Positions 14,826 through 17,192 of a stretch of 64,000 nt of DNA are shown piece by piece. The stretch lies in the sequence record PV469800.1, one strand, 5' to 3'. The notes below the pieces were generated by a model that had not been told where the DNA came from, ran no database searches, and was given only the letters and a program-made list of their open reading frames with translations. The stretch's first letter is position 1. The number at the start of each line of letters is the position of its first letter. The DNA comes from Escherichia phage HMD-P10. The position numbers were made by a program, and so were the translations under genes.

Positions 14826-17192
14826 ATGGCAGATTACAAATTGAGTCAGTTAAACTCAATCGACACAATTCGTTCAGAAGACCTATTGCATATCAGAGTT
14901 AAGAAAAGACCTGAAATGTTGGGTGACGAAGACCGTAGAATGACCTATCAAGACTTCTTAGCTTCCTTCAAACTAGAAAGGTTTGTTCAGATTGCTGGGA
15001 GTAATATGACTGGGGATTTAGGTATTGTCAAGCTACTTTACGGTGGAAAGATTGTATTTGACCCTACAGGCTCTTCTGAGATTACTATTGGGGATGTTTT
15101 AAAGACTTTTAAACTTAATGCAAGTGGCCTTAAACTCACTATTGCAGACTCTTCAAGGTCAGCAACTGTTTATCACACTCTGAATAAGCCAAGCCCTAAT
15201 GAGCTTGGTATGAGAACTAATGAAGAGAATGATGCAAGATATGCAAGGCTTGCTGCAAATAACATCTTTACATCCCAACAAACTATCCAAGCAAATGGTG
15301 AAGGTATTAGGTTAAAAAACTCTTCTGAGAACTCACCGTTGTATATCAGAGGTCAGGATAGTGCTGGTGAGAATAGATGGTATATCGGTAATGGTTCAGG
15401 GGGTGATAATGTTACTATCCGCAACCACAAGACAGACTGTGAAGTTATTCTATCTAGTGTCGTGGCTATCAATAAAACATTAAGCATCACTGGTCAAGTC
15501 AAACCTTCAGATTTCTCTAACTTAGATGCTAGATACTTCACTCAGACAGTTGCTAATCAGAGATTTGCACAGTTAGCTGGTAATAACACTTTTACAGGTG
15601 CTAATACATTTAGGACTATGAGTATTATCTCAAATGCTGCTGCTATCACACTACAATGTGCATCAGCAAATGAATCCCTGTATCTACTTGCAAAAGATTA
15701 TCAAGGTGGTAACTTATGGTATGTTGGTAAAGGTAGCTCAGGTGATGGTGTAACTATCTACAACTATACCACTAACACCTCTTTGGTCTTAGATGCTGCT
15801 GGAGTATCAGCAAATAAAAATGTCAGAATCACTGGTCAAGTTCAACCTTCAGATTGGGCTAATATTGACTCTAGATACATTCCAGCAGGGACTTTGAGTA
15901 ACCTTGCTAAACTGAGTGATGTGAATACTTTTAGGTCTGCGCAAGTTATTAAACAGAATGGTCCAGTGTTGCAGCTAAGGAATACTATTCAGGACAGGGA
16001 GCTATATATCTCTGCTCATAATGCTGATGATGTTAGAAAGTGGTACATCGGTAACGGGGATGCTAACCCAGCAAGGCTTATTATCCACAACGACAGAACT
16101 GCAACTACGATTTATATGCAAGACGATTTCTTGCTGAATAAAACAGTTAGAATCACTGGTCAAGTTCAACCTTCAGATTTCTCTAACTTAGATGCTAGAT
16201 ATTATACGCAATCTGTAGCAAACTCTAGGTACATGCTTGCTGTCTCTACTGGTTCTGGTACAGAGGCTGGTGATGGTGATGGTATTGCTTGGAATGCTAG
16301 GACTGGTCTGTATAATGTTACAGGGAAATCTGGTGGTTCAACACAGCTAGTTTATCAAATGTTTATCGGTGGTGGCTCAACACCAACTGCACAGTTGAAG
16401 TTTAGCTACAGGAATGGTGGTGTCTGGTATAGGACAGCAAGAGATGGCTATGGATTTGAGAATAGCTGGGCTAAAATCTATACAGACCAAGATAAGCCAA
16501 CCCCTTCAGATATCGGTGCATACACTAAAGCTGAAACTGACCAGAAGATTGCAGAAGCAATTAGTGACTCTACAGACCTGAATAAAATCTATCCAGTAGG
16601 TATTGTAACGTGGTTTAACAGTAATGTTAACCCTAATACAGCACTTCCTGGTCTAACTTGGACGTACCTGAATAATGGTGTTGGCAGAACTATTAGGATT
16701 GCAGCAGCAAATGGTTCAGATGTTGCTACAACTGGTGGTTCAGACTCTGTAACGTTATCTGTTGGTAACTTACCTTCACACACACATAGTTTCTCTGCTA
16801 CCACTTCATCATTTGATTATGGTACTAAGACTTCTAGCACAACTGGTAACCATAACCACAACAGAGGTAACATGGAAATTTCTGGTGTGGTTGGTTGGTT
16901 CAGAAGTGATAACAGTGCATTCTACACTGCGAGCGGTGCGTTTCAGATGGGTAGTTCTCAGGCTTCACATGGCTTCACAGGCTCTAACTTCACTTACGGT
17001 GCTGCTGCTGATTTCCACGCGTCAAGAACTTGGACAGGTGCAACCAACACAACAGGTAACCATAGCCATACTGTAGGTATTGGTGCTCACAGCCACACAG
17101 TTAGTGGTAACACAGGTGGTACTGGTTCTGGTTCAGCATTTAGTGTTACTAACCAGTTCTACAAGTTAATGGCTTGGGTAAGAACTGCTTAA
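14826..17192 (+). CDS. long tail fibre protein with internal repeats and His-x-His repeat tip
   Basis: 788 aa from ATG at 14826 (RBS AGAGGAAAA); three ~85 aa internal repeats (ITGQVxPSDxxNxDxRY); C-terminal tip paralogous to 13604..14779 with HxH motifs. Confidence 0.65.
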   Translation: MADYKLSQLNSIDTIRSEDLLHIRVKKRPEMLGDEDRRMTYQDFLASFKLERFVQIAGSNMTGDLGIVKLLYGGKIVFDPTGSSEITIGDVLKTFKLNASGLKLTIADSSRSATVYHTLNKPSPNELGMRTNEENDARYARLAANNIFTSQQTIQANGEGIRLKNSSENSPLYIRGQDSAGENRWYIGNGSGGDNVTIRNHKTDCEVILSSVVAINKTLSITGQVKPSDFSNLDARYFTQTVANQRFAQLAGNNTFTGANTFRTMSIISNAAAITLQCASANESLYLLAKDYQGGNLWYVGKGSSGDGVTIYNYTTNTSLVLDAAGVSANKNVRITGQVQPSDWANIDSRYIPAGTLSNLAKLSDVNTFRSAQVIKQNGPVLQLRNTIQDRELYISAHNADDVRKWYIGNGDANPARLIIHNDRTATTIYMQDDFLLNKTVRITGQVQPSDFSNLDARYYTQSVANSRYMLAVSTGSGTEAGDGDGIAWNARTGLYNVTGKSGGSTQLVYQMFIGGGSTPTAQLKFSYRNGGVWYRTARDGYGFENSWAKIYTDQDKPTPSDIGAYTKAETDQKIAEAISDSTDLNKIYPVGIVTWFNSNVNPNTALPGLTWTYLNNGVGRTIRIAAANGSDVATTGGSDSVTLSVGNLPSHTHSFSATTSSFDYGTKTSSTTGNHNHNRGNMEISGVVGWFRSDNSAFYTASGAFQMGSSQASHGFTGSNFTYGAAADFHASRTWTGATNTTGNHSHTVGIGAHSHTVSGNTGGTGSGSAFSVTNQFYKLMAWVRTA

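Follow-up and report, generated by a model that had tools for sequence, protein, structure and literature searches.

What do short nucleotide repeats inside a phage tail-fibre gene mean for the evolution of the fibre? We address this for the long tail-fibre gene of Escherichia phage HMD-P10, a Felix O1-type myovirus of the genus Felixounavirus, which lies in a 64,000-nucleotide (nt) stretch of DNA (record PV469800.1) that we analysed as a whole and refer to below as the window. The gene occupies 14826..17192 on the plus strand, as do all the features described here, and encodes a protein of 788 amino acids (aa), with the repeats at the ends of three tandem units of the predicted fibre shaft (R1 to R3). 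We propose, with a probability that we put at roughly 0.75, that the junctions between these shaft domains are short-homology recombination joints at which domains are swapped, deleted and added.

The first-pass annotation of this DNA had described a pair of near-identical segments and a partial third copy, and had equated them with three tandem repeats of about 85 aa. The pair is as described, in that the copy at the 3' end of R1 (15486..15535; ITGQVKPSDFSNLDARY) and the copy at the 3' end of R3 (16152..16201; ITGQVQPSDFSNLDARY) differ at two of 50 bases. The third copy, which had been placed near 15829, is also present, but it is not partial: the segment at the 3' end of R2 (15828..15877; ITGQVQPSDWANIDSRY) is complete and in frame, with a diverged second half that leaves it 10 mismatches from the R1 copy and eight from the R3 copy. 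When up to three mismatches were allowed, the 50-mer occurred at only two sites in the window (15486 and 16152) and at none in 100 dinucleotide-preserving shuffles, while its first 28 bases were found three times against an expectation of zero. The family can be extended to 86 nt (15471-15556, 15813-15898 and 16137-16222), all three copies lying in frame 0 of the fibre open reading frame (ORF), at residues 221, 335 and 443. Their spacings of 342 and 324 nt correspond to units of 114 and 108 aa, so that three tandem units do exist, but with lengths of 98 (R1), 114 (R2) and 108 aa (R3) rather than the size first supposed. A block of 31 nt (AGAATCACTGGTCAAGTTCAACCTTCAGATT) is identical at 15825..15855 and 16149..16179, and it corresponds to the crossover interval in the two-unit relatives described below.

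Two other kinds of element were considered for the repeats. An RNA element was rejected, since folding of the three 86-nt copies gave no signal (z = -0.16, +0.86 and -1.07) and a scan of window positions 1-64000 brought no Rfam family to its gathering score. A diversity-generating retroelement was set aside on anatomy, the copies being short, in frame, within one gene and conserved across genomes; no reverse transcriptase was matched among the 30 ORFs scanned against PHROGs, in a window with 76 ORFs of at least 100 aa.

The three units have a recognizable domain identity. Pfam family PF20744 (gp37_trimer) matches the fibre in three stretches (E = 8.5e-65; 215.3 bits against a gathering cut-off of 21.7), and a local hidden Markov model built from the unit finds three domains in the window fibre, at aa 132-237, 238-351 and 352-459. 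Together with the unit alignment, this places R1 at aa 140-237 (15243..15536), R2 at aa 238-351 (15537..15878) and R3, the unit absent from two-unit relatives, at aa 352-459 (15879..16202). A search of the PDB with the three-unit profile returned residues 367-438 of T7 gp17 (7boz, E = 5.2e-8; 4a0u, E = 4.9e-7; 4a0t, E = 1e-6). An AlphaFold2 model of residues 121-479 contains three five-strand beta domains (predicted local distance difference test, pLDDT, 80-94) with low-confidence linkers between them; 4a0u and 4a0t were its top PDB matches in Foldseek (probability 1.0, E = 2e-4), at template-modelling (TM) scores of 0.22/0.37, which are low because the query was a three-domain monomer (predicted TM score, pTM, 0.35). 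Judged by the profile matches, each shaft unit is a homologue of the 'pyramid' domain of T7 gp17, and it may share the fold of that domain.

Each unit terminates in a 17-residue junction, I-x-G-Q-V-Q-P-S-D-[FW]-x-N-[LI]-D-[AS]-R-Y, and it is this peptide, as ITGQV(K/Q)PSDFSNLDARY, that the 50-mers encode at the unit ends. While the bodies of R1 to R3 are 46-54% identical in DNA, and the units 37-48% identical in protein, the last ~51 nt of the units are 80-94% identical in DNA. The difference extends to codon choice, for which we computed expected matches from the codon usage of structural genes. At amino acids shared by the R1 and R3 bodies, 13 of 25 codons agree where 11.5 would be expected, which marks the unit duplication as old, with saturation at synonymous sites; over the final 17 codons, by contrast, 14 of 16 agree where 6.9 would be expected (P = 2e-4). 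Across 19 relatives, mean pairwise nucleotide identity is ~0.89 over the N-terminal 140 codons and ~0.5 in the unit bodies, and it rises to 0.72-0.88 at the junctions (codons 221-260, 331-360 and 441-460). The junction repeats are, in other words, islands of nucleotide conservation between hypervariable cassettes. The peptide itself is kept in 28 of 28 loci, in forms that depend on position: W-x-N-I-D-S-R-Y is found almost without exception at the end of R2, while F-S-N-L-D-A-R-Y is the usual form at the ends of R1 and R3. Exceptions to the R2 type are confined to L010 and L018, which are the two most divergent loci, and to the two-unit recombinants.

The bodies that lie between the junctions occur in many combinations. 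We typed them by clustering at 70% identity in a protein sample made up of the window fibre and its 120 best homologues (121 clusters), and found 13 cassette types for positions 1 and 3 and seven for position 2, in 46 different R1-R2-R3 combinations among the 121 fibres; on this typing, unit bodies reassort almost freely across the junctions. Two types are shared by positions 1 and 3. The window R1 (type 'D', its R3 being of type 'A') is 80% identical in amino acids and ~88% in nucleotides to the R3 of fibre P0085, against 43% amino acid identity to the R3 of its own gene. This similarity in DNA runs from just past the N-T-F motif at the unit start through the junction repeat, in which the right end of the shared cassette lies, and the flanks on both sides are position-specific. 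Fibre P0087 (793 aa, from Logan) carries the window-R1 type at positions 1 and 3, with 75% amino acid identity over 80 residues against a median of 35% between these two positions; because the same cassette type is there twice, the P0087 gene should hold a much longer internal direct repeat. Types of R2 share at most 53% amino acid identity with types of R1 or R3, and no R2 cassette was found at another position.

Changes in the number of units are also seen. Three units are present in 119 of the 121 clusters and two units in the remaining 2; all 24 complete loci from IMG/VR have three, and overall we counted three units in 143 of 145 Felixounavirus fibres. The two-unit fibres (P0041, P0271 and P0075) are 680 aa long and have exactly one unit fewer, the deleted length being 108 aa relative to the window fibre and 109 aa relative to a three-unit sibling, P0017. 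In DNA they match R2 as far as the block AGAATCACTGGTCAAGTTCAACCTTCAGATT and then continue as the tail of R3, the switch falling inside the shared block, with the reading frame and the junction motif exactly preserved. The closest pair is P0075, from a Logan contig of run SRR33526939, and P0017, from SRR33526860, a run with a nearby accession number: the two proteins agree at 332 of 332 residues to the left of the deletion and at 345 of 348 to the right, and their loci (L001 with two units, L031 with three) differ by four substitutions in 8 kb and a clean 327-bp deletion. We found no paper citing either run in the literature searched. In the three-unit parent, the joints share exact runs of 20 and 13 nt only, separated by one mismatch, at which the recombinant carries the R2 base; because that base is retained, the exchange maps either to the 13-nt run (CAACCTTCAGATT) or, more broadly, to the near-identical block of 34 nt. 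Between the first two-unit allele and a second one there are 130-132 differences in 2043 nt (~6.5%). P0075 has a much nearer neighbour in its three-unit sibling than in this second allele, and the simplest inference is that deletion took place at the same joint twice, independently. The deletions observed used the R2 and R3 copies, and not the most similar pair, R1 and R3.

Fibres with more units are found in distant relatives. A profile search of 1.84 billion cluster representatives returned proteins with the same N- and C-termini and five, four, three, three and three units; pyramid-domain proteins have a single copy in 118 of 150 among the matches listed. One of the longer forms is encoded in an 80.9-kb metagenomic phage contig (L030) with the same gene order and ~70% identical baseplate proteins, where a five-unit fibre of 1075 aa has units 3 and 5 that are 64% identical in protein and 74% in nucleotides, which points to a later duplication. 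Compared with cultured phage records, the four- and five-unit representatives reached only 44-49% identity, with no close match. The first-pass annotation had suggested comparing fibre length among related phages, and the range is two to five units; repeat number is not fixed, since two-unit, four-unit and five-unit fibres exist. Its proposal that in-frame recombination between the repeats alters shaft length is borne out by the two-unit fibres, with their junction inside the repeat, and by the longer relatives, but such change is rare, with no gain seen within the genus, and is less common than exchange of unit bodies.

The fibre frame itself is interrupted in two loci. In L023 (IMGVR_UViG_2974574300_000001, ~3560-3600) it breaks exactly at the R3 junction, one ORF ending in ...NKTLTLAADSTFRFL* and the next frame resuming at QQIQPSDFSNLDARYY, a break that comes either from a sequencing error or from a genuine frameshift at this joint. 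The fibre of L016 (phage EC6) is likewise divided between two ORFs, for which GenBank has two proteins annotated.

How might one joint give rise to such different products? We suggest that the shaft is built as three tandem beta-domains of ~100-115 aa, each ending in the conserved 17-residue junction, and that the commonest outcome at the joints would be the exchange of domain bodies, or cassettes, between co-infecting phages. Occasionally, a cassette would be transferred between position 1 and position 3, and more rarely an unequal crossover or slippage between two junctions would remove or add one whole domain in frame. Recurrent recombination would then add to the structural constraint on the peptide in upholding the nucleotide conservation of the junctions. 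Recombination enzymes would presumably act at the joints, and the resulting changes may affect adsorption or host range.

Several observations weigh against the proposal that the junctions are recombination joints. Length change is rare, given three units in nearly all clusters and in every complete locus, and is probably selected against; a search for the deletion-junction pattern in JGI metagenomes and IMG/VR yielded no further alleles, no gain of a unit was seen within the genus, and the two-unit alleles are known from assemblies alone. The junction peptide is conserved in every relative examined, so that protein constraint alone could explain much of the similarity in DNA. The excess of R1/R3 junction identity within genomes is small (0.835 against 0.812 with genomes permuted, P = 0.003), and may have its source in phylogeny. 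Finally, no recombinase and no annealing or RecA-like protein was found among the 20 replication-module ORFs scanned, which include ligase, polymerase, primase/helicase, exonuclease (34523-35563), nucleotide-metabolism enzymes and rIIA/rIIB.

These points bear on what else the repeats could be. On one account they are passive structural elements left by an ancient triplication, in which the peptide holds the trimer in register, the similarity in DNA is a by-product and recombination has no evolutionary role. Conservation of the peptide in every locus, the saturated synonymous sites of the unit bodies and an almost fixed copy number are what such an account would lead one to find, but the junction codons agree at twice the expected rate, the breakpoints of deletions and cassette swaps lie in the junctions, and cassettes reassort almost freely across them; we consider it unlikely. 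Intragenomic gene conversion, which would keep the ends of R1 and R3 near-identical, could draw on the within-genome excess just mentioned, which is smaller in the other junction pairs. An excess of ~2 points can, however, be produced by genome-wide codon or phylogenetic structure, R1/R3 identity within a genome ranges from 0.59 to 0.98 while the same junction is equally similar between genomes (0.83), and the R2 junction keeps its own type in nearly all 28 loci; a table of motifs suggests that position or cassette type, and not the genome of origin, determines how the junction copies cluster. Because similarity within genomes only slightly exceeds that between them, homogenization inside one genome is not the main cause. 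Strong concerted evolution within genomes is accordingly not supported as the principal explanation, the excess being two points only, and we regard gene conversion between the R1 and R3 ends as highly improbable.

Doubt may also fall on the length variants themselves. Every two-unit allele comes from a short-read metagenome or SRA assembly, and no short gene was seen in cultured phages among the 40 records listed, of 220 matching, in our comparison with INPHARED, so that the two-unit fibres might be assembly artefacts and the genus might have no real length variation. Against this, the shared runs of 20 and 13 nt in the near-isogenic parent are shorter than the k-mer of the Logan contigs, which we take to have been assembled with k=31, so that a de Bruijn collapse is impossible; two ENA assemblies (ERZ27280814, ERZ28617079) each yielded the second allele, one of them in a MEGAHIT k141 contig and the other, independently, in a scaffold; and the frame and junction motif are exactly kept. 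An artefact thus seems improbable to us. At the other extreme, repeat number might vary within a lysate by programmed, high-frequency switching in the manner of a contingency locus, changing the reach of the fibre. Repeats that are in frame and unit-sized, and a same-joint deletion that recurs in two lineages, are compatible with such a switch, but the homology available is only 13-50 nt and the unit bodies are ~50% identical. Moreover, the near-fixation of three units (143 of 145 fibres) argues both for stabilizing selection on fibre length and against a contingency-locus switch, which we regard as barely credible here. There is also a stronger form of our own proposal, in which the junctions would be more than remnants tolerated after a triplication: their nucleotide sequence would itself be preserved, to serve as dedicated splice points for combining cassettes. 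Pyramid-domain bodies from a common pool would then move among phages, and from position 1 to position 3 or back, and the number of units (two to five) would be tuned to lipopolysaccharide or O-antigen surfaces through lateral contacts or fibre reach. This further step we regard as doubtful. In a passage study of a Felixounavirus fibre, the variants rising in frequency were at residues 497 and 534, distal to the units, and were tentatively tied to host range (PMC6669636).

Outside the units, the fibre begins with a conserved N-terminal region (aa 1-139; 14826..15242; ~0.89 mean pairwise nucleotide identity in the 19 relatives), which is closed by a junction-like motif (KPSPNELGMRTNEENDARY; 15186-15242) ending in ...NEENDARY. 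Beyond R3 lies a distal domain of the gp37_C / phage Mu fibre S type (aa 475-583; 16248..16574), hypervariable among relatives and recognized by Pfam PF12604 (E = 1.8e-22) and by the Mu tail fibre S structure 8ju3 (E = 1.3e-22); another related motif, ...PSDIGAY, comes after it. The C-terminal tip (aa 586-788; 16581..17189) has His-x-His repeats and matches the T4 gp37 tip structure 2xgf (E = 4.7e-8), with a weak match to Gp10_C. Some relatives of 846-849 aa (P0049, P0054, P0060, P0089 and others) have three units and a longer distal part that lacks the PF12604 (gp37_C) domain, as do loci L017, L024 and L025; this represents a module swap beyond the repeat region.

The protein matches a tail-fibre family from end to end, residues 1-788 aligning to positions 1-780 of 780 in the PHROG 4277 'tail fiber protein' profile (E = 0), and the gene is 95.9% identical in nucleotides to that for a 'putative tail fiber protein' of E. 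coli phage vB_EcoM_Shy. The 220 phage records that match it are mainly Escherichia and Salmonella Felixounavirus. The start codon is the ATG at 14826 (MADYKLSQL...), in agreement with every homologue; a GTG at 14541, which gives a longer ORF prediction, was rejected because it would overlap the upstream fibre gene and is used by no homologue. The gene order is kept in relatives (baseplate wedge, baseplate protein, 100-aa gene, short fibre, long fibre, thymidylate synthase), and in the window the baseplate genes and the shorter fibre lie upstream of the long fibre, with thymidylate synthase, dihydrofolate reductase and then the replication module downstream.

The shorter fibre gene (13604..14779; 391 aa) encodes a related His-x-His C-terminus and no pyramid units. 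Direct repeats of families D2, D4, D5 and D7 are common to this gene and to the 3' end of the long fibre gene; with family D8, these similarities connect 14318-14657 of the short fibre to 16806-17126 of the long one at 65-86% identity, and they encode SSFDYGTK and G-x-H-x-H motifs. Both proteins terminate in ...W(Q/V)RTA. Through these 3' repeats, the two genes might also exchange sequence with each other. The consecutive genes that start at 13299, 13604 and 14826 also have similar 26-nt starts (family D3; 13283-13308, 13588-13613 and 14810-14835; 69-85% identity), which span the ribosome-binding site and ATGGCAG. Directly downstream of the long fibre gene, a 123-aa protein (17466-17837) is conserved; it belongs to PHROG 4038, a family of unknown function, has weak coiled-coil-like Pfam matches to DivIC and Filament, and might contribute to fibre assembly or to lysis. 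In relatives, the interval separating the fibre gene from this one holds a gene of 64-65 aa with a match to Pfam PF26925 (Phage_PM2_Gpl), the corresponding position in the window being about 17270-17470.

The main use of these observations is as a guide to fibre engineering and to the reading of fibre diversity. Sites of the form ITGQVQPSD...DARY are natural in-frame splice points for engineering Felix O1-type fibres, as shaft domains have already been removed, added and swapped there in nature without breaking the fibre protein. They also show where fibre diversity arises in Felixounavirus, members of which serve in Salmonella and E. coli diagnostics and biocontrol. That fibres one unit shorter can appear within closely related samples is relevant to the quality control of therapeutic phage stocks.

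How does this locus compare with known systems? That phage fibres evolve with tandem domains, with conserved linkers around variable segments and by duplicating or deleting sequence in frame at short motifs is well established, and no new mechanism is revealed here. The pyramid domain of T7 gp17 (4A0T/4A0U, residues ~371-447; 7BOZ) resembles our units by profile match (E = 5e-8) and by Pfam PF20744, but T7 has one copy of the domain followed by its own tip, whereas the Felixounavirus fibre has three in tandem followed by the Mu-S/gp37_C-like domain and the His-x-His tip. In the Ounavirinae, two fibres have been described, the longer with domains like the C-terminus of T7 gp17 and the Mu fibre, and structurally conserved despite low identity, according to a study of Shigella phage Sf14 (PMC11821841). 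The equivalent fibre of that related genus is Sf14 gp53, and the passages found in that study do not address unit number, junction nucleotide repeats or cassette exchange. In the Felixounavirus literature that we searched, fibre diversity and T7-like domains are noted, but not the junction repeats, the reassortment or the range of two to five units.

Bacterial contingency loci share with this gene repeats that are in frame and unit-sized and whose number can be changed by recombination. They consist, however, of near-identical whole units and vary between close strains, whereas here ~50 nt per unit are alike, the unit bodies being only 46-54% identical, and the number is almost fixed at three (119 of 121 clusters, 24 of 24 loci), so that the locus is not a variable-number tandem repeat of the contingency type. 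A closer parallel is T4 gp37, in which small-domain duplications were reportedly described by Tetart, Repoila, Monod and Krisch in 1996 (in J Mol Biol 258:726), with in-frame unequal recombination said to take place at short motifs. The likeness lies in short conserved motifs within a fibre gene and an in-frame change in domain number; the difference is that gp37 involves the receptor-binding tip and host-range selection, whereas ours involves shaft domains, with products known from sequence databases.

The mosaic tail-fibre genes of P2, Mu, lambda-like and T-even phages, in which conserved linkers flank variable segments, provide the other parallel, the mosaic principle having reportedly been described by, for example, Haggard-Ljungquist et al. 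in 1992 and Sandmeier in 1994. As in those genes, conserved islands here flank hypervariable cassettes, the combinations of segments are incongruent, and the breakpoints fall in linkers. Unlike them, the Felixounavirus gene has linkers that are also repeated inside one gene, and cassettes can therefore shift position and units can be lost or gained.

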